Assembly (NCBI GenBank): GCA_010909165.1
Contig: VJWM01000266.1
Coordinates: 1-64,000, forward strand
Reading direction: 5' to 3'
Origin: Anthoceros angustus
Taxonomy: Eukaryota; Plantae; Anthocerotophyta
Length of the DNA: 64,000 bases
Shown here: one piece after another, positions 1,804-58,148 of the stretch
How positions within the stretch are numbered: position 1 is the first letter of the stretch
Layout of the letters: each line of letters begins with the position of its first letter
Position numbers and translations under genes: made by a program
The notes under the pieces: generated by a model
Told to the model about the DNA's origin: nothing
The model's database searches: none
Seen by the model: only the letters and a program-made list of their open reading frames with translations

Positions 1804-2527
1804 GCAGCTACAGCGGGTTAAGCACCTCTAATCTTCAATTTCAAGTGGATAGTCTTGCAATTTCTGCGGGGCACTCATCCAAGCTACATGGTCTGTGGAT
1901 GCACAGCCCTTTTTCAACTTTCAATTTCTAATGTGCTAGGTAGCTTGGCTCAGCAGTTGTGAAGGAGTGCACTTCGAGAATCGGCTGGCCTAGGAGAGCG
2001 ACAGCGACATTTAGAAATCTGACACTTGGTTAGGCTGCGGGGCATCCTCCTGGATTTTACTTGGTCCTTCGAGACTATTGGACTCAATTTCACCAGGACA
2101 GTCAAGCCTAGAGTTGCTCGCTGACAATTTCAATTGTGTCGGCTGAACTTTCGATGGAGGCGTTGTTTGCATCGATTGCGAGTCGGGGGGATTCCCTTCA
2201 CGCAGGGATAGCGAGCGGCTTGGTTGAAGTGATTGCATCTTCTTTTTGCTGACCAAGTTTGCATGGGGACATGCAATGAACATGGGACCAGCCACGCTAT
2301 CGGTGAGATCCGTAGCATTCAAGGTCGGTCACCTCGCTTTACAGCTGCATACGCCACGAAGGCAGCGCTAAGGCCGCATCAATTTCAAGGGACGTGGAGG
2401 CCAACACTCGACTGATTCATCTTCCTCGGTGTTGAACTAGCAAACTGGTCTCCCTTCCATTTCACATCAAGCGTATTACGAAGGAGGAGGTGCCCAGGTC
2501 GCTATTTCCGAGCGGGTTTCGCCATTC

Positions 2528-3720
2528 TTGGGACAGTCCCCATTCAGCTCGATCATACTTGGGACCGTCCCAAGGGCATTCCACACTTGGGCGGTCCCAA
2601 GCCCGCTGGAGACAGTCCAAGCTCAGCCATCCTCGGGATACTCGGGACAGTCCCAGCTTCAACTCCATTTGGACCAGGATCAATCTGAGGATTCAGACAC
2701 TATGGAGGGAGGAGGAACCTCTTCCAGGCAGGAGCGCTTTTCAGGAAGGCCAGGTACACAAACATTGCGGGACTTCAAGCTGTTTGTCAACAGCATGATC
2801 AGCCGAGTGAAGTTCAAGCATGGAACGGCGTATAATCACCGGTACATGTTCGAGCAACTATCCAGTTACTTGACAGATGAAGCGCTGGATTTGTATGAGG
2901 TCCACCAATCTGAGTTGTTGTCCACAACAGCCACTCCTAACCCGATTTTTCAGAATGCATTGCAGCTGGCCTACAATGCTAAGTTGGCCGCAGCAATCAT
3001 TGCCCATCAAGCTGGGATTGTTGATGGCATTGTCCAGCCCACAGAGCCGCCACCCACAGTCACTAGCTTGACTTCAGCGGAAAGAGTAGCAGCTACTGTG
3101 GGAGTGGATGAGTTCATCCATACCCCCAAGTATACCAATCCGGTGGAGGAGTTCATGCAGATCCTAGAGAGGGCGTTTCCACTCAAGACGCCGGAGAAAA
3201 TTGCTGAGCTTGCTAGCTTTGCGCGTAAGAAAGGGGAGACAGTCTAGATGACCTTTCGGAGGCTGCAAAAGTTGCGTGAAGGGACCGGCATGCTCACAGA
3301 CCAGGAGGCAGCGGAGAAGTTTCTTACAGCGCTGGAGGGGGACTCCTTGTTCCATTTCCAGCTTGTCACCTCATTGGTGGACAAGTATGGGGACCGGTAC
3401 ACTCTTGAGCAGGTGCATGAGGAGGCGGAGCGCAAGGAGATTGCTTTTTCTGCCTATGCCTCCCGGCATTCCAAGGCATTACATTACGATCCATGTTCAG
3501 CAAGGGACGGCTGCCGGGAGTGGGAGTTCAGCATCAAGGGCATTGAGCCAAACCGGTAAGCCCGGTGCTGCAGCGACCATGGAAGCCATGTAATCGCGTG
3601 AGTCCGAACATTTGGCACCAGCATGCAAGTGCCCTATGGAGGGACTGGTGTGCTCTCATTGCCACAGACTGGCCATCTTGTGACAGTGTGCTTTCAGCGG
3701 GCAGAAATCGGAGCTGCACC
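2528..3720 (+). pseudogene. gag: Element A gag with CCHC zinc knuckle
   Basis: ORFs 2528..3247 and 3248..3559 are in frame across a single TAG (FPLKTPEKIAELASFARKKGETV*MTFRRL...FLTAL). At 3651-3691, CSHCHRL[G]HLVTVC matches CX2CX4HX4C after restoring one base. Confidence 0.8.
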
Positions 3721-4659
3721 CAATCAGCCGGAGCAAGTCCGGGAGCTGATTCGAATTTCACGCAACAAACAGCGTGACAAGGCTAAGGCCAAGGTCGCTG
3801 CCACCACCGAGAAGGTGGCCTCCCTTGAGGCGTCTATTGCCGCTCTCACGGCGCAGATGACGGCACTCACAGCCAGCCTCACTGCTGGAGCCAAGCCAGA
3901 TGGCGCAGCTGCCCTTGTCTCCACACAAGCTGAGGATGAGGAGGACTATGGGCCACCGCATCTGGCGTGTGTGGCTCATTGTTTGCCCACCACTGAGCAT
4001 CTTTCAACACTGCCAGCCACATGGGTAGGCCAGGAGTTGCCTTCCGCCATTCTGGACGCTGCATCCGGATCTCCTGGACCTGTTACCCGGCTGCGAGGGG
4101 CACGTGCAGCCATGCCTCAGTCCTTCAGCACGCTACCACCGGGAGCAGCCATCCCTATTCGGGGGCAGGACCATTTTGGGGAGAGCGCTGCAGATACAAC
4201 ACCTTACAGGGACAGCACTCGGGAGAATCCAGCTTGGAATCAGCTGTCCCTCTTGCCTCAAGCTCTCACTGCTGAGCAATTGGCTGAGAGATTGGCTGAT
4301 GTCCCGGTGTTCACCCTCCAAGACATGGGGATGGGTGCCGATCGACTTCGCCGAGCATTGGAGACAAGGCTAGCAAGAGGATCTTTGCCAGCCTGACAGT
4401 CCTGAGGACTTAGGAATGTGGGCATGTGTCCCACCCATGGGACAGTCGGGACTGTTCCCCACTTGGAGCAGGCGGGGCTCCTCTGGACAGGACGGGTGTC
4501 CTCACCGGGGCAGATCGGTGAATCCCACCTCCGGCTATCTCGGCGTATGCTCTTCTCATCGAGCATCACCCGCCAAGATCGGCCACGGATCCAGCCTACT
4601 AATCCATCGCTCGTGTCTCTAATGCCATGGTGGACAGGAGGGACATGTGCTGATCAATG

Positions 4660-5030
4660 GATACGCGCCCAAGCTCGTTCTCCTAGATACAGGGGCTCAG
4701 CCGGTAATTCTTGGCGCTCGCTGCAGTTACATTTGAGTGGTGATGCTCTCGCTCACCTGGAACATTCGGACAGCATCAGGATCCTTGGAGCCCGTGAGCG
4801 GGGAGACTTTGCAGCCCGTGTCTATCACTTTGAAGCCTGGGACGTCTGCTGCTATGACATTGGCGCTTCATTGCCTTGTCACAACAGCAACCAATTATGA
4901 CATTCTCCTTGGACAGGAGTTTTTGTTCCCACCAAGTGTTAGCGTGGACAATTGGACCGAGCAAGCTTTCTATCGCCCTGATTGGAAGAGCGGAGGACAG
5001 CGCGACGCGCCATTCCTTTGGATGCGCATG
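4660..5030 (+). pseudogene. Element A aspartic protease
   Basis: VLLDTGAQPVILG (catalytic D codon at 4686) and downstream TNYDILLGQEFL in ORF 4737..5036. Confidence 0.88.
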
Positions 5031-5369
5031 GCGTGAAGTGAATCTTGTCAATTGGCTATGCCTCAAGTACTCATGGCTACCCTTGCTGTCCCGGTATCCG
5101 GGACTTCACGGTCCCAATGCTCGAGTCTCGGTGTCCGGGACCCCTGCTCCCAATGGACAGCCAACATGGATGATGGGCGAGAAGCCCGGCCAGGCCTGCG
5201 TTGAGACTAGCTTGCGGCTGCCACAGCCTTGAGGGATGTCCTCTTGGGCGACAAGTGCGGATTCTTGCAGCTCACTCCACAGGTCAAGCGCTTCAGCTTG
5301 AAGCCTCCACCGAGTGAGTATGCTCCCATCGGTCTGAACAAGACTGTCCTCACATGGACCTCACCAGCA

Positions 5370-6260
5370 ACCGACCTTACCATGCTGGAACTCTTTGGTG
5401 GGCTCTGCACCGGTCTTGAGGCATTTCTTCAGAATGGGCTGGTGATCACTCGCTATGTTTACTGTGACAGCTGTCCCATAGCCCGGCGCATTCTGAGTAT
5501 CGACTCAAGGTGCAGCAGCGTTTCCCGCGCCTGCCTGCAATCACCAGCACCTTTCAGCCATTTCCCAAGATATCCGGTACATTCAGACATCCTCCTAACC
5601 CCATTGATGTGGTGGCAGGATGGGAATGCCAATTCTCTCAAGCTGGCACGGAGGTGGATTGCAAGATCCCGCTCTGTTTTGGGATTTGCAGCGTGTCCTC
5701 ACCTGGATTCAGGAGTTCAGTCCCGGTTGCGCCTATGTCTTAGAGAACACCCCAGCGCAGTTGGATACTCGATTGTCGGTGCGCCAAGACATGACAGTGG
5801 TTCAGCACCATGTGGGCACACCTCTCTTGCTGGATGCTGCACAAGTGGGTAGTTTCGCTCACCGGCTGCAAAATTATTGGACCAATTTGGCCCCCCAGCC
5901 TTTGCTGGACCTGGTGCTGTCCCGGACTACTCGGGACCCCACTCTTCGCCTTGCCACAGTCTTGGACGCCCATCACCAGACCAGGCCGGTGCAAGCAGCC
6001 GAGAAGCCACCTTGGTATCCTACCAATGTCCTGGGACAGCCCCGGCAGACTTTGCCTACCTTGGTGAGCTTTCCCAACTCCTATGCGTATAGGGGACAAG
6101 GGACAGGCTTGCTTCTCAACACAGATACTCAGGTGTGGGAGGAGCCCACTATGGAAGAGCGGGAGCGCATCATGGGGTTCCACACCCATGCCACTGCAGC
6201 TCCACAGGTCCACTGATTCGTCGGCTTGCGGCTTTAGGCAGAGCTATGGATCTCACAGCT
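5370..6260 (+). pseudogene. C5-cytosine DNA methyltransferase domain (DNMT3-like motif order) inside pol
   Basis: Motif I MLELFGGLCTG (5382), motif II YVYCD, motif IV DVVAGWECQ (catalytic Cys 5627-5629), GLQDP(R)SALFWD, motif VI YVLENT (about 5743), motif VIII DAAQVGSFAHRLQNYWTNL, motif IX EERERIMGF, motif X RRLAALGRAMDL. These are spread over ORFs 5229..5852, 5510..5743, 5620..6216 and 6135..6590. Confidence 0.92.
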
Positions 6261-6620
6261 CGACCGGCTTGTGAGTGCTTGCCCTTTTCAACTCCTATCC
6301 CGATCCGGGACACTTTCGGTGGAGTTGCGTCTGGGCACACCTGCACTGCTGATGCTGTGCATTTGCCCTTCCTGGCTACACCACCTGGTCTTATTGGCTG
6401 GATGCGGGGAGAGCATGAGGCATGGGCGCCCATGAATGTTTTTCAGCATCCTGGTGGTGGTGGAGTCCCGATCGGCGTAGTCCGGGCGGAGACAAGCCAC
6501 CAACACCTAGCTCAAGCTATGTCTGAGACTTTTCCATGGACCATGGGACCCAAGCTTAGCGCTGGACAGCAGCAGCCTTGTGCGCCTTGATACTTCAGAC
6601 AAGGACTGTTCGCTTTCTCC

Positions 6621-7320
6621 ATGAAGGAGCTGCAATGTGTGGCCATTTTCACATCAATCCCAGCAAGGAGCCCATTTACGGCGGCGTTACAGGCTCAGCA
6701 GGACAGTGGGACATGGTGGATGCACTGTCAAGAACTGCTGGAGGCCGGGCTGATCCGCCCTTCTCACTCGGACTATGCTGCTGCCACGGTCATGCCACCT
6801 AAGAAGGACAGCAATGGCCTATGGACAGAGAAGCGAATGTGTGGGGACTACCGTCCCATCAATGCTGTCACCGCCCAGGCCCGGTACCCAATGCCGACTC
6901 TTGAGGAGATTTTTGACAGCATTGGCAACTCCACTTTCTTCTCCATACTCGACCTTCGGCAAGGCTTCAACCAGGTCCCGGTGGCTAAGGAGGACATCAA
7001 GAAAACCGCTTTCCATGGTTCCCAGCAGTTGTGGGAATGGCTGGTGATGCCTTTCGGCTTCAAGAATGCACCGGTCACTTTTCAGCGTGTCATGGACATA
7101 GTCCTTGCCGGATCCGCCAATCTGGTGTGCTATATTGATGATGTGCTTGTCCACAGCATGGACTTTGAGTCACATTTAGTCCATTTGGAGGACCTATTTC
7201 AGCGCTTGAGGAAGGCACGGTGACTTGCCACCGGCTAAGTGTGAGTTTGGGAGTGACATGGGCTACCTTGGACATCGCATTGTGCCCAATGGAGTGGCGC
7301 CACACTGCCAAGGTTCAGGC
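6621..7320 (+). pseudogene. Element A reverse transcriptase
   Basis: LIRPSHSDYAAATVMPPKKD...RMCGDYRPIN...YPMP...LDLRQGFNQ...KTAF...MPFGFKNAPVTFQR...YIDD. Confidence 0.97.
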
Positions 7321-7479: not shown

Positions 7480-7830
7480 AAGGAAAGGCTGACCGAGGCA
7501 CCCGTCATGGCTAGGCGGTTGAGAAGCCCTTTGTGGTCCACATGGAGCATCTTGGGACTTGGAGCGGTCTGGCTAGACGAGGAAGGGCGGAGCGAGTGAT
7601 TGCCTATGCCTCTCGCAGCAACAATAGAGCTGAAGCAAACTACAGAGCTACCAAGGAGAGTGTCTTGCGGCCGTGTGGGCGTTTGCCCTCCTCTATGGTA
7701 AAGCCCTTTCGCTGGTCACCGATCATCAGCCTCTCAAGTGGCTCATGACCAACACCAAGCTCGGTGGTAAGCTGGCGGATGGGCCATGATTCTTCAAGAC
7801 TATGAATTCGAGGTGGTCCACCGTGGCATC
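7480..7830 (+). pseudogene. Element A RNase H
   Basis: LGLGAVW...RVIAYASRSNNRAEANY, then TDHQPLKWLM (frameshifted) and ILQDYEFEVVHR. Confidence 0.85.
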
Positions 7831-7979: not shown

Positions 7980-8800
7980 AGGACGTGTGGGAGGATTCTG
8001 ACACTTTGAAGTTTTTGCAAACAGGTCAGCTAGACTCCTCCTTGAGATTAGCCGAACAGGAGCGGATCAAGCAGCGTGCCTCCTCATACCAATGGCGGAT
8101 GGCTACCTTCTCGAAGGCTGCATAATGGGTGGGCGCCTAGTTCCTGCCGTGACCGGGTGGAGGCTGATCCACCGACCACGACATGGGACACTTTGGTGTC
8201 AAGCGCACCTCTGACCTGGTTCCTCACTTCTATTGGCATGGCATGCATGCTCAGTCAAGCAATTGGCGTCTTGTGAGGAATGTGACCGGGTCAAGACCTC
8301 ATTCACTATCCAACATGCCACTCCACCACTCCCGATCATGGGACTATTTTTCAGGTGTGGTCTGTGACTTGATAGGAGAGCTCCAGACACCAAGAGGAAT
8401 GTTTACATTCTCGTTATGATGGAACATTCTCCAAGTGGGTTGAGGTAGTGGCGCTACGACAAGACTTCACGGAGCACGGCCCAAGCATTCTTGAGCGTCT
8501 TGGGTAGATTTGGAGTTCGCCGAGTGTCTCATACCAAGGCTCAGAATTCGAGTTCCAAGATCTTTTGGATTCAGCCCTCATTGATCACGTCGGACGGCGG
8601 ATCATCCAGCTGATGGGTTGGCAGAGCGGATGGTTCGAGACCATCAAGAAGGGTCTTAGGAAACTCGCCTCTGATTTGCCCAAGACCGAGTGGGACTTGT
8701 CACTTCATATATTGCCATGGGATACCGTATGAGCAAGCACGCGTTGGCTCATTTCAGCCCCTCACTGTTTGGTAGGAGCCACGCCCCTAGTTCCATTGCC
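7980..8800 (+). pseudogene. Element A integrase
   Basis: DVWEDSDTLKFL pre-integrase segment, GHFGVKRT..FYW, C..C zinc motif, SKWVEVVAL, DGLAERMVRTIKKGLRKL, IAMGYRMS. Confidence 0.85.
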
Positions 8801-11030
8801 AAGCACATGTACGGTGGTGGACTTGGATGACCAAGGTGGGCTCGAGTCATTGGACACGGGCTGCTCTCTTTCGCCAAGCAATGCCTATGGCCATGGCCAA
8901 TTTGCGCATTGCTCGGAGACACCTCCGCTATGCCCACACTCGAGTGGCGGTTCGCCCCAAGCTGAAGAAATTTCGGTGGGGACTTCATCTGCAGCAAACT
9001 CGGGATACCTTGGACACCAGCGGCATGTGCTCGGGTCAAGAGAGGTCAACGGGTTCTTTTGTCAAGAGGGCGATGGGCGCACAACCACGACCACATGAAG
9101 AATTGTGCGTGCCACCTCCCAAATCTTGATCCCACCATTGTCACATGATTGGATTCCCCAGTGATGGGTTGGCGGATGGTTCGACCATCAAGAAGGGTCT
9201 TAGGAAACTCGCCTCTGATTTGCCCAAGACCGAGTGGGACTTGTCACTTATATATTGCCATGGGATACCGTATGAGCAAGCATGCGTTGGCTCATTTTCT
9301 ACTGTTTGGAGAGCCAGCCCCTAGTTCCATTGCCAAGCACATGTATGCGAGGTGGTGGACTTGGATGACCCAGTGTGGGCTCGAGTCATTGGACAGCGGG
9401 CTGCTCTCTTCGCCAAGCAATGCCTATGGCCATGGCCAATTTGCGCATTGCTCGGACACACCTCCGCTATGCCCACACTCGAGTGGCGGTTCGCCCCAAG
9501 CTGAAGAAATTTCGGTGGGGACTTCATCTGCAGCAAACTCGGGATACCTTGGACACCAGCGGCATGTGCTCGGGTCAAGCAACGGTGGCGTCTTGTGAGT
9601 GTGACCGGGTCAAGACCTCATTCACTATCCAACATCCAGACTCCACCCACTCCCGATCATGGGACTATTTTTGAGTGGTCTTGTGACTTGATAGAGCTCC
9701 CACGGACACCAAGAGGAATGTTTACATTCTCGTTATGATGGAACATTTCTCCAAGTGGGTTGAGGTAGTGGCGCAGACAAGACTTCACGAGCACGGCCCA
9801 AGCATTCTTGAGCGTCTTGGGTAGATTTGGAAGTTCGAGTGTCTCACCACCAAGGCTCAATTCGGGAGAGTTCCAAGATCTTTTGGATTCAGCCCTCATT
9901 GATCACCGTCGGACCGGTAGGATCATCCCAGTGATGGGTTGGCGAGCGGATGGTTGAGACCATCAAGAAGGGTCTTAGGAAACTCGCCTCTGATTTGCCC
10001 AAGGCAAGTGGGACTTGTCCATATATTGCCATGGGATACCGTATGAGCAAGCGCGTTGGCTCATTTCGGTCCTACTACATTGTTTGGTAGGAGCCACGCC
10101 CCTAGTTCCATTGCCAAGCACATGCAGGTGGTGGACTTGGATGACCCAGGTGGGCTCGAGTCATTGGACAAGGCTGCTCTCTTTTGCCAAGCAATGCCTA
10201 TGGCCATGGCCAATTTGCGCATTGCTCGACCAGACACCCTCCGCTATGCCCACACTCGAGTGGCGGTTTAGCTAAGTGAAGAAATTTCGGTGGGGACTTC
10301 ATCTACTTGGCAAACTCGGGATACCTTGGACACCAGCGGCATGTCTGGTCAAAGGTCGAGATCAACAGGTTCTTTTTGCTTCAAGGGCGATGGGACAACC
10401 ACCGACCACATGAAGAATTGTGCGTGCCACCTCCCAAATCTTGATCCCACCATTGTCACATGATTGGATTCCCCAGTGATGGGTTGGCGGATGGTTCGAC
10501 CATCAAGAAGGGTCTTAGGAAACTCGCCTCTGATTTGCCCAAGACCGAGTGGGACTTGTCACTTATATATTGCCATGGGATACCGTATGAGCAAGCATGC
10601 GTTGGCTCATTTTCTACTGTTTGGAGAGCCAGCCCCTAGTTCCATTGCCAAGCACATGTATGCGAGGTGGTGGACTTGGATGACCCAGTGTGGGCTCGAG
10701 TCATTGGACAGCGGGCTGCTCTCTTCGCCAAGCAATGCCTATGGCCATGGCCAATTTGCGCATTGCTCGGACACACCTCCGCTATGCCCACACTCGGTGG
10801 CGTTTAAGCCCCCAAGCTGAAGAAATTTCGGTGGGGACTTCATCTACTTGCGGCAAACTCGGGATACCTTGGACACCGGTTGCCGCATGTGCGGGTCAAG
10901 GAGGTCGAGACCCAAGGGTTCTTTTTGCTTGAGTGATGGGCGCACAACCACCGACCACATGAAGAATTGTGCGCCCGCCACCTCCCAAATCTTGATCCAA
11001 CCATTGTCACCACCGATTGGATTCCCCCAG
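8260..11030 (+). repeat. Nested tandem duplication of the integrase C-terminal half (units about 550 bp and 1315 bp)
   Basis: ORFs 9149..9598 and 10464..10820 have identical N-terminal translations (offset 1315). The sequence jumps back to about 8611 at 9161 and 10475, and to about 8260 at 9581. Confidence 0.9.
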
Positions 11031-11180
11031 CTGATTACCCATGCCAAGTATGCCAGCGCATCGATGATTCAGACTTGATGTTGCTGTGCGATAGCTGCAA
11101 TGGAGGATACCATCTGTTCTGCTTGATTCCACCTTTGTCCGAAGTCCCCGACCAGTTGTGGTATTGCCCACGCTGTGCGG
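11030..11180 (+). CDS. PHD finger at the integrase C-terminus of element A
   Basis: CQVCQRIDDSDLMLLCDSCNGGYHLFCLIPPLSEVPDQLWYCPRC is an intact C4-H-C3 motif in ORF 10967..11668. It is preceded by the duplicated integrase tail (ILIQPL...DWIPPADYP). Confidence 0.93.
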
Positions 11181-11339
11181 CAGCACCCGTTCCAGCGAGC
11201 ACTTACCATCAAGACCCAAACAGTGGGGGACAAGAGAACTATGTTTTCGATGCGGGGTTGGCACAATTGGCAGTCCATGGCGAGAAGGGGAACTTCAGCA
11301 TTGCCAATGTGGTGAAAGAGGAGGAGGATGGGGGTCCGA

Positions 11340-11669: not shown

Positions 11670-11796
11670 TACCTTGACCTCGCCACGGCTGATGGTCTTC
11701 CTCCCTTTTGCGTTCACGTTCCAGCGCCCGACTCCGACTCTTGTTCTTGAAGTGGAGAAGCCCAAAGCGCACTTTGCCCTCCTTAGATATACGCCA
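11670..11796 (-). mobile_element. Family C 5' leader fragment with candidate PBS (minus strand TGGCGTATATCTAAGG, 11781-11796)
   Basis: Matches about 33660-33765 and 44900-44970. Lies directly inside LTR1 and starts with TGG. Confidence 0.6.
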
Positions 11797-11807
11797 CTGG
11801 CGGCGCA

Positions 11808-12283
11808 CAACCTAGATTGGGTTCATCATTCCAAAATCCTAATTCTATCTAAACTACCTATTTTCCTATCACCGCTATCCCTAATTAACGCTTTCTAATT
11901 ACTCTATATATTTATTCCCTATTGGTGAGCATATATAGTGGATATCCCCTCTATTCTAAATTTCCTTTTTTGGAGATTTGTCGACCTACGCGGTGATGCG
12001 ACTTACAGCGATGATCTGCTCCCTTCTCGACCTACGGCGTGGTGTGGCTCGATGATGATGCTACCAACCTTGGTGCCCTCACCGCGCCTCGGGGGGTCGT
12101 TTTGACCCGTTCTTCTTCCTGGGATATCCTCTTTGCCTTCCTAACAATATCCTACAACTCCAGCTTCAAGATTCTCAGAAAATTTCCTGGCATGCTCCTC
12201 TTCAATCGTTTCTAGCCAAAAAAATCAAACTTGTTTGTCTCCTGGCTCTTTTGGACTGGTTGCCCAAACTTTTGCGTTCCACA
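11808..12283 (-). repeat. LTR1 (about 475 bp)
   Basis: Begins TG on the minus strand (tgtggaacgc) right after a polypurine tract. Further copies at 33772, 34386 and 44978. Confidence 0.88.
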
Positions 12284-12284
12284 T

Positions 12285-12299
12285 ACTCCCCTCCTCACC
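12285..12299 (-). promoter_or_regulatory. Polypurine tract of element B
   Basis: Minus strand ggtgaggaggggagt immediately before the LTR1 TG and after the integrase stop. Confidence 0.8.
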
Positions 12300-13300
12300 T
12301 GTTTGCGTCCTCGCAAACAACAGGTACCTCGGGTTGAAGGTACTTCTTAACCTTCCACCCATTCACTCTGGTCGGCAATTCGCCGCCTAGTACCCGGAGT
12401 TGCACAGATCCATTCTCATATACTGCTACCACCTCGTAAGGTCCCATCCATCTGCTAAGCTTCCACAGGAAAGTCTAGTACTATCATATAGAAGAACCAA
12501 ATCCCGTCACGATAGTCTCTTGCTTCCTCAACCTCCCATCATGCGTCTTACGAGTTCCACAGATCCGCTGGGTTTCTTCTAAAGCATCCTCCCTATTTTC
12601 CTCTCTATGAAGCGATTCTAGTCTAGCTACTATCCTCTCGGTCATCGTTCATCCTCCATGATCACATGGTAGGTACTTCAAATTCCACGGGCATCACGGA
12701 GACATGCCATATGTTAGATAATAAGGGGTCTTCTTGGTGGTTACCTTCTCCAGCGGTCTGTAGGCCCCAGTGCAACTTAGCATCCCAATCATACATGTGT
12801 ACATTACCTTGGTGAGGATTGTGCGACCCATTCGTCTTCTCCGTCAATCCATTGCCTTTGGGGTTGTAGGGGTCGTCTTCGATGCGAATGTTGAAATAGG
12901 TGGTTAGGGACTCAACGACCGAGTTGAGGAAATGTGTCCCCCGGTCGCTGACCAACTCTAAAGGACATCCGTACCTCGTTATGATGTTCTCGAATAAAAA
13001 CTTGCTCTGCAGTGCGTCGTCCTTCCTCGTCGCTTGCTTCCACCATCTTTGTACAATAATCCGTAGCCACCAAAATGTCTGCTTCCTTGTCCATTGCGTT
13101 GGTGGTTTGATTCTCTGAAATCGATTCCCCACTTCTCGAGCGGTGCTAGATGGTAAAGGTAAGAGGCCATTGTGACAATGGGCCGTAACCCTCGCATCAC
13201 ACCTCGGTGAACTCCACACATCCTTTTGCATCGTAGCCCACGAACCGCATTCAAAATCTTCTTAACGGTCACTGTGCGAATAGTGTCCACGGCCTCTTAC
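12300..13300 (-). pseudogene. Element B integrase with GPY/F module
   Basis: APLEKWGIDF, ILVATDYCTK, FENIITRYGCPLELVSDRGTHFLN, NPKGNGLTEKTNG. C-terminal GDLVLLYDS...RWMGPYEVV...NGSVQL...TRVNGWKVKKY. Confidence 0.9.
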
Positions 13301-14149
13301 GCATGTAGCGCCTCGTGGCAGTCTTCAACCTCGAGGCATCGGATTTTATCGTCGGACCTTGTTTATACTTCCCTTCAAGCGGTGCGGCTTTATGGAAAAC
13401 AGCCGCCCTTCCTGGACAAACCATCGGCATGATTCCATGCTCCGAGAACGTACCTTCACCATTCAAATATCTCGGGCATGAACGCCCCTCGCGTTCTAAT
13501 CTCCTCCTTCCCGGGTACCACGTCGCTCCTCCTAGCTCGTCCGTTAGTAGCTCCAAGTGGCGTGGATCATCCATCCATGCCTTCTTTGCCATCACATTCT
13601 CACTGCGGCATGCCTCCTCCTCCAACTGATTTCTTCCATTCTGCTGGTCTAGCCTCGTGCTAGGTCCAGCTCGTGCTCCCATGGCGACCTCTCCTTGCAC
13701 CTCCATGGTCCTCTTGGTGATTTCCCATGAATCGCCACCTCCTTCTCTGCAATTTTCTTCAAACTTGTCATGGGATGCATCTCCTTCCTCTCTGCGCATC
13801 CACCTCCCTAGGGCCTTCTCCTCCTCACACTTGCGACCCGCCAAGTGTGGCGCCCTTCTTCGCTCAGCGGTGCTCTCATGTGGTTTTGCTTCCTTGGCCT
13901 CCACTTGCAGCCTCCTGCTCACCCTTGAGCATTCAGCCTCCTCCTCGCTTGGCGCCATCCTATCTCCCTGGTTCCAGTTGTCCTGCTGCTTTTCACTGGC
14001 GCTCCCTTCTTGCTCATTTGGCCTCTCTGCAGCAAGACTTGCTGATCAATTCTTAGGCCGTCTTATCACGTCCTCCCCTTGACCCATGGCAACCAACTCC
14101 TCGTCGAAATCGGTCGTGGCCTCAAGTCGCTCTCCGGTTTTGGGAAATG

Positions 14150-15360
14150 AAATCAGCATTGATGCTTTCCCAGCCTAGTCTCGTCGTAGTCAAACTCTTG
14201 CAGGTAGTACCCATCGGCAATCCTTCACGACAAATCGGCTTGTTGACAAGATACTTCAGCAAAATGGTCAACATGAAGCGTCACCTTGCAAGCAAGCGGA
14301 TAGTGTCTAAACTTCTTACGAGTAAATGATACCAAGACCCTCCGCTCCGTGGTTGAGTAGTTCTTCTTCGGATGTGTCTCGCATAGAAAATCGGATGATC
14401 CGTTTCTTCTCGTCCTTCGGCTTAGCGGTCCCAATGGCATAGCGGACACATCCACGTATACATGAAGTTTCTCCCAATCGGTTGTAAGCGTTGGCGCTCA
14501 CCAAAAGTCCTTCAGCTGAAAAGCCTCTGTCTTGCATTGGTCCATTCGAAGGTGTATCCTTCTTGGTCAATTGTGTCAACAAGGCTGCCTTCTTGGCGAA
14601 ATCCTTGATGAACCTCTGTAATACCCTACCTGCCCTACAAAAGCCTTTTTGCCTCACCGTTTGTGGTGCGTCCATCTCGACTATCTGCTTCTCCTTATCT
14701 ACACCAATCCTCGTGAGACTCGATGTGCTAACAAAATGCCCTCCGTCATGCCAAAATAACACTTCCCGGATGAAGTTTCATGTTCGACTCCTGCATTTCA
14801 TTGCCTCAAATGGTCTAGATCACGGTTTCTCCTCCCAAACACGCAAAAATCATCTAGGAATACCTCCATGAACTTCCTGAAAATCTCGGAATATCGCGTT
14901 CACCACCGTTGGAAAGTGGCGGGGCATTGCACAACCGAAGGGAGCTTGAATAGCGTAAGTTCCCCAATCCGTTGTGAGCGTTGTCTTGTCTGATCCTCCT
15001 TCCTAGAAAATCGGTGTACCGAATACCCATCAAGCTGTACATCTCATTCATGTCCGCTGCTCCATGAAAGGTAAAGGGTGATGATCCTTCTTCGTTGCTT
15101 CATTGAGCTTCACGAAATCTTGACACGAACCTTTCCTGCTTGCTTCTTGGTACAATCACGATGGTGCGACCCACTCCTTTGGTGAGCCTTGGATAAATAC
15201 CCACCTCCAAATATTGGTCGGTGATCCTTAACAACCATGGAATACTTGGGATTGACTGTTGCTTGATCCTCACAGTCTTGCCCTCCTTCAAGTCGATTCG
15301 ATGTATCCCAGTTCTTCGGTATTCTGTCATGTCGTAATCTTGAAGGCAAACACATCGACA
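14150..15360 (-). pseudogene. Element B RT and RNase H
   Basis: HRIDLKEGKTVR, YLEVGI, IVIVP, RFIKDFAKKAALLTQLTKKD, NYSTTE, KFRHY...LHVDH. Confidence 0.85.
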
Positions 15361-15699
15361 TACTCCCTAAGCACTCTGAAACTCTTCTCTACTCATCCTA
15401 GATAGAAAATCTTGACTACCTTGCTAGGTTCTAACTCTAGGTCTTCTGACATCGGGATCTACATGTTCCTTTTGCTACCTATCTTGGTTCGGATCCCTCT
15501 TCGGAAAATCTCGATCATAGGCCTTACCCTTCCAAAGGCTACTCCTTCTATGGGCCTCATCCTTGCTCTTCTGACTTCCTCTATGTAAGCAGTACAATCA
15601 CTCTTTATTTTGACCTCGGAGGACCCCGATATGCTCGATCCTTTGCAGGAGCTTACCCGTGCTACAGGGTGTACCCATCGGTGGTTGAGACTCCCCTCA

Positions 15700-16000
15700 T
15701 AGGAGCCTTGCTCCATGACACAAAAGCGATCGCCGCGTATCTCTTGGACTTGAAGGTGATGCCACTACGACCAAAATCAAAAACACACGCAGTACCATAC
15801 AACCAAGGCCTACCTATCAAAACCTTATAGCCTAAATCCGAAACCGGCCGCATCACAATGTAGGTAAGATGGAAGGTGAGACCCCCAATCAGTGGGTACA
15901 TTCTTGACCCCCAAGCTTTCTCCTTGCAGTGGCCATCGTAAAATACTCGGGCGGGTGGCTCGGTGAACCCAAGTTGATGAGTCTCCTCCGTCATCAAGTT
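15700..16000 (-). pseudogene. Element B aspartic protease
   Basis: NLMTEETHQLGFT...TYIVMRPVSDLGYKVLIGRPWLYGTACVFDF. Confidence 0.75.
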
Positions 16001-16649
16001 GACTCCGATCCGAATCTAATGGCACGTTGGGCACCAAACACCCCAATTTCAACCTCAATCTCGGGTGCCCCAAATCAATGAGTTCGACCACATTTACCTC
16101 CACCGGTTTCTCCCTCCACTACTTGATTCCCAGTCCTTCACAATTTTGCGGGATCTCGGACTCACAAAAGCATCTCAAGACCACAAATTCGGTCGGTCAA
16201 TAATCGTGGGGAGATCTTATCGACAAGGTTTCCTCCCGTTTGCCACAGCTGGTCGATTCGACCTTATTGGTGGTTCGATTCATGATCCCCTCCGGTGGGA
16301 CCCCTACGGCGGATCAACAATTTCGGCTCATACCTTCGTCTTTGTCGGGTGAGCTGTTTAGCTCATCTTCCGCCGCCGCCGCCCGGTGATATCGAGGAGC
16401 AGTCGTTCCTCCTTCCTTGGCCCTTCTTGCCGCCCTAGGGGTAGGCTGTCTACCCGTGGTGCCGGACTAGGGTGTGCCTGCCCTTCTTGGGTGGGTCCGT
16501 TCCTTCTCCTCTCGCGCCAGCGCGCGTCTCTGGAGGCCAGGTGAGTCGTCCCTCACCTTCCTCCGCTTCCTTTCCTCGTGCTCGCCGTTTTCCGCATTCG
16601 GCCTTTCTCTCGGCTTGATCGGTGGTCACCTTGGCCACCATCAACCTTC

Positions 16650-18400
16650 ATCCGCTCATCTCTCCTTCCCCTCTTCCACAATTCGATGTCACCTTTGGAT
16701 CGTCGAAATCATACTCGCCTCCACCTTCAACCGGTGTAGTGGTCTGTCGCGGTTTCGGGATTGGGTGTCTCTTCCTGCGCTCGTGAACGACTCCACAGTT
16801 GGTGTCACTCGCGCCACCCGTACACAGGATCCCCATTTATGTCCCAATTCCTTTATACAGGGCACATAACCCACTTGCTTCCGTGGTTACGGGCATTCGT
16901 TTGAGTAGTGACACAGGTGCTCCAATTATAACAACATCCTGTGGAATCGCCATGCCTTTGCGATGGATCCGGTCTCCATGGTCTGGCGATGTCGGTCGCG
17001 ATCCATACCTTGAGGGGCGGGTGTAGTCGGTTGGTTAAGCCCTCATTGATTGAGGTGGCCGACTTCGATGACGCTTGCACTGGTAGCTTCATCCACATAC
17101 CAATAATCTCGGCATGGCGGTTTCCACATGATTTACGCGCGTATCGTGGTGCGAATACATTCGGTTGGTGTGTCCCGTTTGATGACAAATTGAGCAATAC
17201 ACCAAGCTCGTGAGGAGATCTTTGAGCTTGATTCTTCCTTTGACCTCTAACTTTCGGTCTTGGTCAAAGCCTCCACTTGTCCCTCCTCCTGCTGCTTTCT
17301 CCTTCTCCATCCGACGGACCGTCTTCCCTTCCTCTCCTTCTCCGGTCGCGTTCCTTCTTCTTGTCGTTTGACCTTCTCCGGTCCTTCTTCATTCGTCGTT
17401 CGTAGGCCTTCTCGATTCTTCATCCGATGTGGAGCTTTCTTGAGTTCATTGTCCTCACTTTCGATGAGGGAGGCGGCTGGAGGAGGCGGAGGAAGGAGCT
17501 AGATCTCCTCGATCCTTTCCTCTTCTTATGACTTAGCCTCTTCTTCTTCTCCTCCCCAACTCGGCGGACTCCCATTCCTCGTAGCGGAGGCTCACCTTAC
17601 GTCTTTTGTCCACGCTGCGGTGTACCTCCATTTTTTTGACAAGCCACTCACAAACCAATCCAACGCTTGCTCTTGTGAGTACCAGGAGGTGGTGGATCTC
17701 CGGCCTCTCGGGTGCACATTTGAACTCGATCGGATCATAAAACCTCTCCACATAATCGAACAAGATTCGCTTCTTTGAAGGGGTTCTCAACTTCCAAGTG
17801 TGGTGTGCGTGAGCCCTCGAACCGATTCAAGAAGGCGCTTTGAGAGCTTCCCAATCCGGCGCCGATTTGTGCGACCATACCTTATTGCATGCCCTCTCGA
17901 TCCGGAAGATCGTGATCGATCGGCGACTCCATCCTCCAAATTAGCGTGGGAGGCGTGCTCGAAAGTTCTTACAAGCGCCTCGCGTCATCTCCTTCTTCTT
18001 CTCGCCGAATTTGGCGTATTCTTGGCGGTATGTGAGTGGCCCTCCTCCTCCACCAACTCCACTTGCTTTGATCGCTGCCCCAACACTTCTTCTTCCTTGG
18101 GATAACGAAAGCGGATCGGGATCCTTTGAGCAATCTTGACCAGCGGAGGAGTAGCGACCTCCCTTGTGGTTCGTCCCAGATCAATTGATCGGAGATTCGA
18201 TCGAGGCGTTCCAATCCTCGACCGGGCAGAAATTCCCGCTCGGCGACCTCGTCGTCATGTCGATTCCTTTGGAAGTTGGGGTGGTCTCACCGCTTTGAGA
18301 AGCAAAGCGTCGTGGGCTCCGCGGTGGGCGGGTAGGTCGTGCTCGGAGGCCTCTCTCCGCTTTGGACACCAATTCTCTTCCACGACCTCCTTCCTCTCGC
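16650..18400 (-). pseudogene. gag: Element B gag with degenerate zinc knuckle
   Basis: YCSICHQTGHT in ORF 17089..17310, with gag-like charged segments upstream. Confidence 0.65.
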
Positions 18401-19074
18401 TGTCGGTGATCTCCGCCTCTTCTTCCTCAATTTCTCGTCTTGCCCGATTCGCCTCCTTCGTTTACTGGAGTCAAGGTGACTTCTTCGCGATCGATGCTTT
18501 CGCCTTCCTCCTGCCCTCGGGTAGCGGCGTAATGACTTCTTCCCTCAAACATGCTAATCTTGGAAGGGGGTTAATCTGATGAGGGTTTTCAACCAAATAT
18601 CGTCGGAAGGGGTTTGGGATGGGTGCGTCTGCTGCTTTGGGCAACATCGGTCGAAGGCACGAAAATAAAGTCGATAAGGGATGAAATTGGCGTCGGGCGG
18701 TGTCTCCATCACACAAAGGGTTAGGCGTGGTTCGGCCATCAATTTGGCATATCGACCCATGCTTGCTTACCATAAGTACCGGAAGGACTAAAAGGGCAGG
18801 TTGTTGAGGCCTGATCTAAATAAACAAGGTCTTTTGAAGACATTGGGCAATCTTCAGTCATCATTGGTAAAGAATGGTGCTTCTTTCCGAACCGTCGTCC
18901 GAACCCATAGTCTTTTGTTTTTGGCAAGAAGGGCCTCGGCCGGTGGGCAGCGCCACAGCTCAATTTCACGATTTAGGATTTAGGCATGCGTCGGATGGGT
19001 TATATACGTTGCGAACAAAATGTACAATACGGGGTGCGGAAAAGCGGTTTCCATGCTACTAAAGGATGGTGAAA

Positions 19075-27833: not shown

Positions 27834-30800
27834 TGTGGTAGGGAAAACCCGGGGCACTCCCGAGGTCCTCCCACTATAGCGGCCACACTTATCCCATCGC
27901 TGCGTTGGGTTTCGTCCCATGAGACTTGTGTGAAAGTTCGAGGCCTTGTGATGCCGTCGCTACTGCAGACACACACTCTCGGCCTTCTAACGAGCAAGGC
28001 GCCCTCTCACTCCCCTTCTGCACCACAGCCTTTGCTTGAAAAATCTCCTCGACCTACAACGACACACAATTGGTCACGCCTCGGAGCCTATCACGGGCGC
28101 CGGGGACCCCAGTCCACCGCGATTTCGTCCCTACTTCTAAGACCACTCTTCTCCACTCGGGGCGCTCTTTTACTTGCAGTTGGGATTCGTCCCTTAGGCT
28201 CTGTGGCCTTCCACTAACACCTAATCCTCTACTCATCTCCTCATCCTCTTCCTCCTATTCTAACCTCGGTTCGGGCTTGGCCCGACTTTACGGCTGCACA
28301 GGGTCGGCCTCCCACAAGTTCTTCCTTGGGCGGTTGCTATGAGTTTGACACGGGAGTGAGAACCTCCAGTCTTTCACGTAGTCTACCCTCAAGCCGAGTT
28401 CTCACGGGCATTTGCCACACACCCAAAGCAAAGCAATTTCACGGCAACCATTCACAAGGGAGCAACTCGTTTAGGCACTTGCAGCAAGTCCTCCACCAAG
28501 CACTCCGACCACCATGACTTCCTCTCAGAATGATGCGTTGGCTCACGGACGAAATTCCTCCTGTAATGGCAAAGGACTCGATGGCGTGGGCGCAAGACAT
28601 GATACTTTACTTTGTGAAATCCTCCTCCTCTTATAGGAGGCCTTCCACATACAACCTCCCTTAGGTGACCCTCTGCGGTCACCTTTTCCAATATTCTATT
28701 ATTTCCTACATGACATTTAATGGCACCTAAATCTATTGCATCCTTGGTAAATTCTATTCTAACTTCACCTAAGACCATCCTTTAAAGGATGTCGACTACA
28801 CACCATCCTTCTATTCTTCTACCTAAGCTCATTTATGGTCATTGACCATTCTAGTCTTCCTTCTTTGGGGGCATGTCCCTTGTGGATTGGCTCCCTCGCC
28901 CTCCTTTTGCTCTTGCCCTTCCCGGATCTTGTGTCTTCCCAATGTGTGGGGCAAGTACAATCTTGCCCTTCCTCCATCTCATGAGGCGGCGCCTGATTCC
29001 TCCATCATCCGGCAATCGCGCCCCCTCCTAGGCGCCTTTTCTCCGCCTCGCCTTTGGTCGCCCGCCAGCACCCTACCGGTGATCGGCGGACTACGGGGTG
29101 GACGACTACCATGGTCTCTTCCTTCTTCTCCATCGGTGATGCCTCTGGGTTGGATCTCTTGCTCTTTTCCTCTTGTTTGGTTTGTCCATACCTATCATGG
29201 AGCATCTTCAAGTCTTCCCCCAATGTGATTTCCCTAATCCTTCGGGCCCTTTTTGGTCTCTCTCTCCCTGGCTCCCTCCTTCGTGGGGTGAGAACTTCTC
29301 ACCCTCCTTCCTCGTGGACCCGTCTAGTCTCCTCGGTGGGGTTGTCTCTCCCCACCACCTCACTCCTCGGGGGTATACTGACCCCGGCTCCTTCATCCCG
29401 GCCCCGGCGACTCCAATCCGCCGGCTGCCCCACCGGTAGTCGCGGACTACGGCGTGGTCAGTCTACCACGGTAGTCTGGCGGACTACGTGAGGGGTGACC
29501 CCTGGGCTGTCCCCCTCCTTGCTCTCCACCTTCTACGGCGTTCGGCCTCCTTCCCCGACTCCTCAGTTCCTCGAGTCCATTTCTGATGGCCTCATCAAAA
29601 TCGGAGGCCTGGCACTTGCGACTCCTTTCATCATCATCATGAGGACCCAATGTCCTCCTCTTGGCCAAGTAAGACTTCATTGTTGGCCTTCAAAATCTGT
29701 TGTGGAGGTGAGCCCCAAGCTATGATATTGCATTTGGAGATCATCAATCTCCAGTGGGCCACTCTCCATCCTCACACCTACCTTGTAGGCGTCTCTTGGT
29801 GGTCAATTCCCCACCTTGACATGGAGGTTACATTCTCCTCCTTGCTTCCTTTGGTGGTGGCCAATTTTGCTGAAGGGCATAATCGCCAAAATCTCCTCTT
29901 CCTCACCAGGCATTCATGCACCACCTTCTTGTGGTACTCCTCTCTGGAACCTCCTTTGTTCCTCAACCATTGCTTGGCAAGCCTCCTCTCCACTTGCCCT
30001 CTTCTCGCTCAGCTCTTGCACTGCTTGTCTTGAGCCTTTAGCTCAGCTCTCTTCCAAATTGAGCGGGTCCTCAAATTCTTCTTCATGTCCGGATTTTGAT
30101 GGCTTGTAGCCATCACACACTCTTCTTGTCCAATTCTTTGGACCGCTACCTTCTCCTTCCTAGAGCCTGTTTGCCCTTTCGCTCTTGCTCTAATTGGGCA
30201 AAATGCCTCCATACATCTCCATGAATCCCTTTGGGTTGTTGCCGAATGGCTCTTTCTTGTTTGACAACCTTCCTCGGGACCTTCTCCAGCGCCCGTTGTC
30301 CACAGGTCGTGGAGCTTCTCACCTTTTCCAACTTGTGCCTTCTCGTCGGACTCCATGGCCTCCAATTGCCACTTGGTCCTGCCTTCCTCCGGCCATGTCT
30401 TGAGATTTCACTTCCTCTTGGCATGCCCACAAGGAGGCTGCTCCTAGCCCCTTCAAATCCACATGGTGAGTGCTTCACAAGCACCCAATTCTCCTAGGGT
30501 CCTAATTCCCCTTCTTCTTCTTTAAATTTCCAGCTCTCCCTTGCTCACCGGGCCATGCGGTAGTCGGCGGACTACGGGGTGACTACCATGGTAGTCGATC
30601 TTCCTTCTTCTCCATCTGATGCCTCTGGGTTGGATCTTCTTTGCTCTTTTCCTCTTGTTTGGTTTGTCCATACCTATCATGGAGCATCTTCAAGTCTTCC
30701 CCCCAATTGTGATTTCTAATCCTTCGGCCTTTTGCATCTCCTCCTGGCTCGGGCCTTCCTCCATGGGGTGAGACTTCTCACCCCTCCTTCTCTCGGGTCG

Positions 30801-33770
30801 GACCGTCCTTAGTCTCCTCCGGTGGGGTTGTCTCCCCACCTCTCAGCTCCTCAGGGGTACTACCCCGGCTCCTTCCTTCCTCAGCCTCCCGCGGCCACTC
30901 CCGCAGTCCGCGCCCGTGCACCCCACCCGGTATCAGCGGACTAGGCGTGGTCAGTCTACCGTGGTGGGGACTACCGTGGTAGGTGACCCCTGGGCTGTCC
31001 CCCCCCTCCTTGCTCTCCGCCACCCTCCGCGCTCGGCTCCTTCCCGACTCCTCAGTTCCTCGGAGTCCATTTCATGATGGCCTCATCAAAATCAGGCCTG
31101 GCTGCACTTCTGCACTCCTTATCATCATCATGAGGACCCAATGTCCTCCTCTTGGCCAAGCAGACTTCATTGTTGGCCTTCAAAATCTATTGTGGAGGTG
31201 AGCCCCAAGCTATGATATTGCATTTGGAGATCATCAATCTCCATGGGCCACTCTCCATCCTCACACCTACCTTGTAGGCATCTCCTGGTGGTCAATTCTC
31301 CCACCTTGACATGGAGGTTACATTCTCCTCCTTGCTTCCTTATTTGGCCAATTTTGCACGAAGGGCATAATGCCCAAAATCTCCTCTTCCTCACCCGGCA
31401 TCCATGCACCACCTTCTTGTGGTACTCCTCCTCTTGGAACCTCCTTTGTTCCAGTCCATTGCTGGCAAGCCTCCTTCTCCACTTGCCACTCACTTCTCGC
31501 GCTCCACTCTTGTGCTTGTCTTGAGCCTTTAGCTCCACGCTCCTCTTCCAAATTACCGGGTCCTTAATTCTTCTTCCATGTCCGGATCTTGATGGCTTGT
31601 AGCCATCACACTCTTCTTGGCGTCCATTCTTTGGACCGCTACCTTCTCCTTCCTAGAGCCTCTGTTTGCCCTTTCGCTCTTGCTCTAATTGGGCAAAATG
31701 CTCCTCATATACAGCCTCCATGAATCCCTTTGGGTTGTTGCGAATGGCTCTTTCTTGTGACAACCTTCCCTAGGACCTTCTCCGCGCCGTTGGTCCACAA
31801 GGTCGGAGCTTCTCTCTGACCTTTTCCAACTTGGCTGCCTTCCGTCGGACTCCATGGCCTGCCATTTGGTCACTGCCTTCCTCCGGCCATGTCTTGGGAT
31901 TTCACTTCCTCTTGGCATGCCCACAAGGAGGCTGCTAGCTCCTAGCCCCTTCAAATCCATGGTGAGTGCTTCAGCACTCCAATTCTCCTAGGGTCCTAAT
32001 TCCACCCTGTTCTTCTTTGGAAATTTCCAGCTCTCCCTTGCTCGGGCCATCAGCAGCGCGGGTCACGTCGCTCCATCCGCTCTCCCCAGCGGAGATGGTG
32101 GTGGCGCCGGCGCTCCTCTTCTCCTTCCCTTCCACCGCCGTGGGCTGCACCTCTGGCGTGGGGTGCTGCCCAGCGGTGGTGCTCCCCCTGGTGGTGATGC
32201 GCCTACCGGTAATGCCACCCTTGGGTGGCGCCTCCCTAGGTAGTGGTGGTGCCTCTCTAGGCACAAGGAGATGGTGGGGACTCCCCACCCTTGCATCACC
32301 CCTCCTGTTCCTTCTCTCATAGACTACCATTCGGCCTTCCTCGGCGGTTCACTCTTCTCCTCTTGCTTGCTCACTGTGGGGAAAAGATTCCCACAACCTT
32401 GTTGCCTCCATCCTCCTCTTGCTTCTAGCATGCTTGTGGAGTCGACCTCCCACCGTCTTCCGCAATGCAAAGGCAAAGGCCTTTCCAACTCGGTGGAGAT
32501 GGATTATCTCAGAAGGATGCCGCATCTTCAACTCCTTGCTTGTGAGAAGTCCCTCGGTTTCCCATAAATGCACCAAATAGGTGCTAAGGTAGCAGGCCTT
32601 GGCCCTTCCTCATCCACAATTTGGCTTGAGGAGCTTCTCGGTGGTGGATGTAGGCCTCATACATGATGGTCCCCAATCGGCTTGGCTCCCAAATCTTCCA
32701 CAAAATTGGAGGAAGTTGGTCTTTGAAATAAGAGGCGTTGGTAATTTACCAACCCCAACAATCTTTGCGAGCCTCCACTTGACTCCTTGATGCTCTCGGT
32801 CTTCCGGCCATTCTTGGCGTGGGCCTTCACTCCTCCATCCATCATGTCGAGGAACTCTGCGGGAATGTCGGAGGGCTGTCCTCTTCCTCCATTCGACCTT
32901 TCGAGGAGAGCAATTCGAGCTCTCTTCCTCCGGTCTCCCATACACAGATGCTCCTTACGGTCCAGCGAGGATCCGTTCGAGCATTCCTCCGTAGCGCGGG
33001 CGCCGATTGATGGAGGTTGATGTAACACTCCTCAATCAATTCCAAATTGGTGTAGGCCCATTGGCGGCCATACACCCATCCCAATTGGATGTTCTCCTCC
33101 TCGCCTTTGCAGAAATCACTAAATCCACGGGGTTGAGCTGCCACAAAGCAAGTGAATTGGGGCATCAGCTCGCCTCCTCACGGCGTAGCCCTGCTCTTTT
33201 CCTTCCTTCTGAGGGCCTTGGCGGCTCCTTCCCTTGCCTTTTCCTCCTCGAGGCATGGCGTCTTCCTTTCCAAGTGTTTCAAAGGAAGGAATTACTTCCC
33301 AATGCCAAATTTGGTGCTCCCAAACTTCTCTTCAAACACTTCTCCCTTGGGGTAGCAACCACACTTCACACAGCACACGTTAGCCACAGCGAGTCTTTCA
33401 CTGCTGCCTCCTCCCGTTGTCCTTCTTCTCCGGCCTTGCGCCATTGATTCGCATCTCTTCCACCAATTCTATGACCCACTACCGCTCTTGCTTCCTTGGC
33501 GCTCGCTCCACACTTCCTCTCCGGTGGCAGCGCGTGAGTTCTCCCACTCGCTCGCACTCCGCGTTTTCCTTCCACGGTCGCTCACGCCTCGCGGTTGGGT
33601 TGGTCTCCTTTCGATGGCCTTTTCCTCTCGGCTTGCTCGTGGCGATGGCGGCCTCTCTTCTTCGATGGCGGTCTTCCTTCCTTTTGCGTTCACGTTCGCG
33701 ACTCCGCTCTTGTTCTTGGAAGTGGAAGCGCCAAAGCGCACTTTGCCCTCCTTGGATGTACGCCACACAG
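27834..33770 (-). mobile_element. Family C copy 1: chromovirus-type leader/extra ORF-gag-PR-RT, truncated within RT; gag block duplicated
   Basis: Decayed RT words on the minus strand (VEDLL, LRVDY, NS.QPPKEEL, RIG..D, DEIAV). Near-identical blocks at 39355-44977 and 50923-58145. About 29075-30555 is repeated at about 30556-32040. Confidence 0.75.
32350..33300 (-). pseudogene. Family C extra ORF upstream of gag (plant-transposon / Transposase_32-like)
   Basis: Consensus across copies: NELVMPQFTCF...NIQLGWVYGRQWAYTNLELIEECFINLHQ...TVRSIRQVYGRP...QADWGTIMYEAY. Confidence 0.5.
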
Positions 33771-33771
33771 C

Positions 33772-34238
33772 TAGACCTAGATTGGGTTCATCATTCCAAA
33801 ATCCTAATTCTATCTAAACTACCTATTTTCCTATCACGCTATCCCTAATTAACGCTTTCTAATTACTCTATATATTTATTCCCTATTGGTGAGCATATAT
33901 AGTGGATATCCCCCTCTATTCTAAATTCCTTTTTGGCGAGATTTGTCGACCTACGCGGTGATACGCGGCTTGTGATGGTCACTCCTTCTCAGCCCTACGT
34001 AGTGTGGCAGCCTCTGATGTACCAACCTACCAACCTTTGGTTGCCCTCACGCCTCGCAAATTTTGACCCGTTCTTCTTCTGGGATATCCTCTTTGCCTTC
34101 CTAACAATATTCTACACTCTACTTCAAGATTCTCGAAATTTTCTGGCATGCTCCTCTTCAATCGTTCTAGCCAAAAAAATCAAACTTGTTCGTCTTTTGG
34201 CTCTTTTGGGTTGGTTGCCCAAACTTTTGCGTTCCACA
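33772..34238 (-). repeat. LTR1 copy (5' LTR of C copy 1)
   Basis: Matches 11808-12283 and ends ...tttgcgttccaca on the plus strand. Confidence 0.88.
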
Positions 34239-34385
34239 TCAGCCCTCAGTGGGGCTGTCCCCAGATCGACAACGTGTAGGGACAGTCTCAAGCTATGTCC
34301 CCAGGCAGGACTCTCCCGGATCCCAATGTATGGGGGCGGTCCAGTATGGGACAATCCCGGATCCTTAGATATGCGCCACAGCGGC

Positions 34386-39350: not shown

Positions 39351-39354
39351 GGTG

Positions 39355-47175: not shown

Positions 47176-47195
47176 AGTGTTGGCGGAGGCATAGC

Positions 47196-47210: not shown

Positions 47211-47211
47211 A

Positions 47212-58145: not shown

Positions 58146-58148
58146 TAT

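Follow-up and report, generated by a model that had tools for sequence, protein, structure and literature searches.

KnitGypsy-Dnmt3, the closest described system, was reported from Klebsormidium nitens as a non-permuted DNMT3 in a Gypsy Pol ORF, with conserved catalytic residues and purifying selection (de Mendoza et al. 2018, PMC5890265) and with a DIRS-like A-coding-B-A-B repeat layout (PMC5890265, Fig. 4c legend). A Gypsy-borne DNMT3 has been tested in print only once: the K. nitens domain was negative in yeast, a result that the authors called inconclusive (PMC5890265). Domains of SymbioDIRS-Dnmt3 carried out de novo CG methylation in yeast in the same report. SymbioDIRS-Dnmt3 and SymbioLINE-Dnmt are, like the family described here, retrotransposon-borne C5 methyltransferases, and the DIRS form is also DNMT3-type and located in Pol, but they have a DIRS (tyrosine recombinase) or LINE backbone, occur in dinoflagellates and represent independent captures (PMC5890265). 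The EpiLTRs of Cymbomonas and Euglena share with our family a Gypsy-like backbone and the combination of a cytosine methyltransferase with a chromatin reader. They differ in that the DNMT is sister to DNMT4 and is accompanied by DAM and a chromodomain, in Cymbomonas as an addition to the 3′ end of pol, and their authors regard them as distinct from the streptophyte Gypsy-DNMT3 (bioRxiv 10.64898/2026.05.21.726589), a term for the latter that is also used in PMC12344493. Gypsy-7a_cRei from Chlamydomonas resembles our family in encoding a PHD-bearing Gypsy polyprotein, and a methyltransferase is not among the domains listed in the available text of its description (PMC9940879).

Here we analysed a 64-kb stretch of DNA (the window) that contains one DNMT only, located in the Pol region of a Ty3/gypsy element. 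Like KnitGypsy-Dnmt3, the family to which it belongs has a non-permuted DNMT3 in the Gypsy Pol ORF and, in some of its moss-type relatives, the A-coding-B-A-B arrangement. KnitGypsy-Dnmt3 was described from one charophyte, whereas our family has members in Calypogeia, Sphagnum, Closterium and chlorophytes, and the available text of the KnitGypsy-Dnmt3 description gives no domain position in Pol, PHD finger or Glu-Cys motif (PMC5890265). Among the family matches listed, no protein was named as coming from K. nitens; KnitGypsy-Dnmt3 is compared here by its description. No published report of Gypsy-DNMT3 in land plants or chlorophytes was found in a search that left subscription papers, Repbase and bioRxiv supplements outside, and the available texts of PMC11244446, PMC9940879, PMC6673714, PMC11982613 and bioRxiv 2021.11.30.470311 held none. 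The Gypsy-borne DNMT3 as a kind is already known (de Mendoza 2018); the present analysis adds how wide the family is, that the domain has two positions, the Glu-Cys signature and the pairing with a PHD finger. We read the element in the window as a broken copy from a Ty3/gypsy lineage that is old in green plants; intact copies would use a packaged DNMT to methylate their own cDNA before integration. We give this reading a probability of about 0.55.

The methyltransferase domain and the element around it

The element in the window has the order gag, protease (PR), DNMT, RT, RNase H, integrase and PHD (Table 1). The domain thus has the protease upstream and the RT downstream, and Pol terminates with the integrase and the PHD finger. 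The original prediction had placed eight motifs in linear order on the plus strand, and all of them were located, between the protease Asp at 4686 and the YIDD at 7131. Motif VIII was among them as predicted, but its second Arg is a Gln in the window copy (5869-5871), which had been overlooked. The motifs are spread over frames 3, 2 and 1 and then return to frame 3, and the breaks end back in the RT frame. Frameshift-aware alignment to four intact relatives gave 39-42% identity over 287-314 residues; with three of the four, the breaks fell at about 5490-5505, 5648 and 6214 with no stops, and the fourth alignment had four breaks.

Table 1. Features of the Ty3/gypsy element in the window
Feature	Position	Strand	Remarks
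gag region, in pieces	2699-4393	+	tblastn vs moss-type gag: 38%, E 2e-34; 40%, E 3e-14; 25%, E 3e-10
Aspartic protease, broken	4659-5006	+	DTG at 4686; family profile E 1.6e-4 and 3.6e-18; Pfam gag-asp_proteas E 0.042
DNMT3-type C5 cytosine methyltransferase domain	5343-6252	+	Frame broken three times; G-W-E-C-Q as motif IV; second motif VIII Arg is Gln
Motif I	5385-5414	+	
Motif II	5454-5468	+	
Motif IV	5609-5632	+	Glu 5624, Cys 5627
GLQDP	5656-5670	+	
Motif VI	5737-5751	+	
Motif VIII	5857-5889	+	H-R-L-Q
Motif IX	6154-6177	+	
Motif X	6234-6251	+	
DNMT-RT linker	6253-6596	+	Place and approximate length matched in loci L001-L080
Reverse transcriptase (RT)	6597-7223	+	YIDD at 7131; RVT_1 E 2e-24; 62% to Calypogeia fissa protein
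RNase H (RH), heavily frameshifted	7581-7827	+	
Integrase (INT)	8177-10980	+	Internal tandem near-duplicates 8240-9579 ~ 9561-10900
PHD finger ending integrase	11033-11179	+	KDM5-PHD1/CHD4/WSTF-like; Pfam PHD E 1.4e-12; best PDB 2e6r, E 1.2e-16
G run (weak)	11225-11229	+	Near relatives' polypurine-tract position

Tandem near-duplicates of 1-1.5 kb occur at 8240-10900, 29077-32050, 39135-41228, 46795-48870 and 59761-62792. The copies at these places differ mostly by short indels, at 21-67 per kb; over eight near-duplicate pairs in the window the density of short indels was 10-67 per kb, and indels outnumbered substitutions in 8/8 pairs. These near-duplicates, including those in the integrase, are probably long-read assembly artefacts, and because they differ by short indels more than by substitutions, the frame breaks in the DNMT are probably read errors as well. 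Provided that the Gln in motif VIII is the true base, the sequence suggests that the window copy is probably impaired. The linker between DNMT and RT may possibly serve as a protease cleavage region.

From about 11330 the sequence of another repeat family follows, so the element looks truncated at its 3′ end. Terminal repeats, TG...CA termini and a target-site duplication were not found for the element in the window, and the similarity of window DNA to the relatives' terminal repeat was no better than that of shuffles. The A-coding-B-A-B split repeats were likewise not detectable in the window, where the element ends look truncated. The element has pieces of another repeat family to its left and right (527-800, 11694-12293, 33406-34872 and 44924-45435), and between 33.4 and 34.2 kb these pieces are contiguous. 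Another Gypsy element, which lies on the minus strand (12600-18500) and has no DNMT match, is also present in the window, as are several copies of a large repeat family (27900-33300, 39400-44900 and 51000-60500). Twelve other ORFs in the window had no Pfam match at threshold, and a tRNA search of the window found none.

The position of the domain was compared with that in its relatives, among them loci from a metagenome scan that gave at least 601 stretches, with a relative encoded in 569 of those listed, and from which 80 moss-type loci were retained (L001-L080). The gag-PR-DNMT-RT-RH-INT-PHD order is found in one unbroken ORF in P0005; P0230 and P0183 are also unbroken one-ORF relatives, DNMT, RT and RNase H share one ORF in P0166, and PR and DNMT do so in P0293 from Calypogeia fissa. 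The 56 matches of an RT search comprised 25 with a DNMT directly upstream, 29 that were too short and two distant Gypsy proteins without a DNMT. Because unbroken relatives keep the same order in one ORF, and 25 of the 56 RT matches have the upstream DNMT, a secondary insertion is excluded and the DNMT is an integral part of Pol, in agreement with the original prediction. The domain might otherwise be seen as a passenger, either a host DNMT3 retrocopy, a secondary insertion in one copy or an assembly chimera, and the error-rich window with its artefact-like duplications would fit this. Such an origin, to which we give almost no probability, is refuted by the relatives. Order and spacing recur in the unbroken proteins and in L001-L080, with the order PR-DNMT-RT in all those of the 80 loci that had detected neighbour domains, and the window falls in the same clade, with Calypogeia and Sphagnum-type sequences, in both the DNMT (97/94) and the RT (100/99) trees.

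Enzyme type and catalytic residues

The longest piece of the window domain matched 644 clusters at E<=0.001 (phmmer, 1.84 billion representatives), with a best value of 4e-39, which sets the family size at 644 clusters at 50% identity, and tblastn with P0002 against the window gave a sum E of 9e-42. The broken pieces themselves had no PF00145 match in Pfam, and a PDB sequence search with them returned no methyltransferase. Relatives passed the PF00145 cut-off in 3/4 cases in one set and 8/8 in another, and an Atlas search found PF00145 clusters at scores of 0.93-0.96. When viral and metagenome contigs were scanned at the DNA level with the window's own piece, no close relative turned up. A viral origin was considered and rejected: nine pattern matches contained a single relative, a distant one with 23% identity encoded in viral contig L081 (6001-6831), and phage methyltransferases stood at 22-27%.

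A profile of 59 family sequences, the window piece included, matched DNMT3A/B/C best (E 1e-15 to 1e-10) and ranked DRM-type chains (2e-10 to 2e-7), M.HhaI (3e-9) and DNMT2 (0.01) lower. A structure model (AlphaFold, pLDDT 96) was built from the relative P0230, not from the window copy, and among the Foldseek matches listed for this model all were DNMT3A/B/C (top E 2e-18). In VIA-align the model gave a Z of 29.1 with DNMT3B (rmsd 2.7, 278 aligned), 27.8 with DNMT3A, 25.3 with M.MpeI, 23.2 with M.HhaI and 9.7 with DRM2. DRM2 could be aligned over just 134 residues because it is permuted, and the circularly permuted motif order of plant DRM was absent in the window domain. DNMT2 was well below DNMT3 in both profile and structure scores. 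Judged by the family profile and the model of a relative, the domain in the window is a linear DNMT3-type C5 methyltransferase, and the earlier assignment to a DNMT3-like linear order and not to DRM was supported by profile, Foldseek and VIA-align. Cellular DNMT3A/B, the best profile and fold match, has the motif VIII and IX-X signatures in common with the family, but identity is about 20-25%, the family has W-E-C where the cellular enzymes have S-P-C, and it is without PWWP and ADD.

The catalytic C, EN and R residues, whose loss across copies had been named as a reason to abandon the prediction, are conserved in an alignment of 154 relatives. The catalytic Cys was kept in 123 of the 126 rows spanning the site, the other three being gaps; the motif VI Glu was kept in 138 of 141 relatives, and the first and second motif VIII Arg in 152 and 149 of 154, respectively. 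Just before the catalytic Cys, 71 of the 126 rows had Glu, 34 had Pro, eight had Ser and five had Asp; P0230 has Glu-Cys and P0005 has Pro-Cys. To our knowledge the Pro-Cys dipeptide is near-universal in C5 methyltransferases. The GWECQ motif with its Cys was present in the window as predicted, but the Glu, taken at first for a peculiarity of this copy, is the majority state and a signature of the family, not damage. On a FastTree tree with 112 scored rows, Glu and Pro switched at least 13 times, and this repeated alternation suggests that both residues may be functional.

The Glu-Cys found in most members may weigh against standard activity. It is conceivable that the Glu beside the catalytic Cys has turned the domain into a nucleic-acid binding or covalent-trapping module, or has given it altered chemistry or an RNA substrate. 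The residue counts fit such a role, as does the negative yeast result with the K. nitens domain (PMC5890265), which also counts against cDNA self-methylation. All remaining catalytic and SAM-binding residues are kept, though, the alternations on the tree suggest that Glu and Pro both work, and the low DNMT2 scores point away from it. We consider a non-standard role quite unlikely.

Distribution, architectures and selection

Names were available for a minority of the family matches only. Named members with a DNMT come from Calypogeia fissa (P0293), Sphagnum compactum and S. balticum (P0321, P0368), Closterium (P0148, P0122, P0183, P0192), Chlamydomonas eustigma (P0150 and others) and Cymbomonas (P0061). 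The original prediction had suggested that the host or subfamily may be new. The family reaches far beyond one host, and within the clade of Calypogeia and Sphagnum-type sequences the window has a sub-branch of its own, with P0204 and P0164. The host is probably a streptophyte and likely a land plant without seeds. The Cymbomonas protein (KAK3250090.1) has PR, DNMT and integrase in one ORF and no RT or RNase H match. P0260 (CAA9586175.1) carries the label uncultured Synechococcales cyanobacterium but is a Gypsy protein with RT-RH-INT-PHD. Its cluster is represented by P0181, which lies inside the window's clade, and P0260 likely stems from eukaryotic DNA that was binned as bacterial.

Two architectures were distinguished. 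In type A, which is that of the window, the DNMT follows PR or precedes RT (11/154 proteins), and in type B it follows RT/RNase H or precedes the integrase (89/154), with 54/154 unclassed. The type B layout RT-RH-DNMT-INT-PHD is seen in P0003, P0150, P0292 and about 85 more, the named members being chlorophytes. Between the types, mean identity was 35% for DNMT and 37% for RT. They split apart with a support of 99 in the RT tree and 94 in the DNMT tree, and together they form one clade (100/99) in an RT tree with a thin outgroup of four other Gypsy RTs. The trees took in family members and left out cellular DNMT3, DRM and DNMT1. Across 50 proteins the DNMT and RT identities correlated (Mantel rho 0.57, p 0.001), which by sequence comparison demonstrates long co-inheritance of the two domains. 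A single old capture followed by relocation within Pol would be the simplest reading, with two captures as the alternative.

The PHD finger in the window is closest to KDM5 PHD1, CHD4 and WSTF, and PHD1 of KDM5B binds unmethylated H3K4 (H3K4me0) (PMC4225485). A PHD finger was present in 48 of the 51 proteins with DNMT, integrase and at least 210 residues past the integrase core. Proteins of the Closterium group had no PHD match and end 150-205 residues past this core. The frequency of the PHD finger, and the placement of the DNMT after RNase H or directly before the integrase in type B, fit an active enzyme that would enter with the pre-integration complex, steered by the PHD finger, and act at or after integration on chromatin, that is, on the insertion site, the new copy or competing elements and not on free cDNA. 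In the window's own group, however, the DNMT precedes the RT and is far from the integrase, and some members are missing the PHD. Action on chromatin in this way seems rather unlikely to us.

The full A-coding-B-A-B layout was found in five of the 31 moss-type loci that reach the PHD (L002, L006, L012, L032 and L059), and 14 of the 31 have the B repeat twice (B~B). TG...CA termini with 4-bp target duplications were found in three of five complete moss-type loci examined; L002 (5844-15167), L032 and L059 are complete elements with these termini, the A-coding-B-A-B layout and the 4-bp duplications. A tRNA primer site is expected to start with TGG. None of the five moss-type loci examined has a TGG start in the sequence that follows repeat A, and because of this the priming of these elements may be unusual.

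In 61 distinct moss-type loci, after 19 near-identical ones were dropped, dN/dS values were 0.36 (DNMT), 0.35 (RT), 0.31 (integrase core) and 0.45 (linker); this test is weak because the linker is also at 0.45, the copies carry stops and the loci were chosen by DNMT motifs. Stronger evidence came from a comparison between the window and L002, with identities at codon positions 1/2/3 of 56/69/34% for DNMT and 74/85/40% for RT. The third positions of the DNMT are near saturation (34%), with 69% identity kept at the second positions, and this codon-position pattern indicates purifying selection on DNMT and RT.

Proposed function

In the reading that we prefer, Pol would be packaged in the particle, as expected from LTR-retrotransposon biology, so that the DNMT would be present where and when the cDNA is made and could methylate the element's own new cDNA before integration, presumably with a preference for CG. 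The PHD finger would steer integration to chromatin with unmethylated H3K4 and away from active promoters, loosely in the manner of the ADD domain that guides animal DNMT3. A pre-methylated copy would then land already matching its methylated neighbourhood.

CpG depletion was considered as a sign of self-methylation and rejected as non-specific. The element has a CpG observed/expected ratio (o/e) of 0.48-0.69, and this is no pointer to self-methylation because a neighbouring family in which no DNMT was detected matches it (0.55-0.67). Over gag, DNMT and RT (2441-7220) the CpG o/e is about 0.5 and the CHG value about 1.2, and the neighbouring repeats (12600-60500) have CHG values of 0.47-0.69; codon use may explain this CHG contrast.

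A more extended history is put forward tentatively. One Gypsy ancestor may have captured a DNMT3 before the chlorophyte/streptophyte split. Selection may have maintained the domain as far as the land plants, and its place in Pol may have shifted (before RT, or after RNase H). The result would be a self-contained pair of writer and reader, in which a de novo methyltransferase of the Glu-Cys variant would mark the cDNA and an H3K4me0-type PHD finger would choose the landing site, in an element with DIRS-like split repeats and integrase-made target duplications.

Should the family extend through mosses, liverworts, zygnematophytes and chlorophytes, its design is both old and successful, and tractable plants and algae can be used to test why a transposon carries what is normally its silencer. 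The many intact natural variants, with two domain positions and either Glu-Cys or Pro-Cys, offer a set of enzymes for an activity assay of the kind that was negative in yeast on its one trial. Gypsy-DNMT3 copies can also inflate the DNMT3 counts in plant genome annotations.
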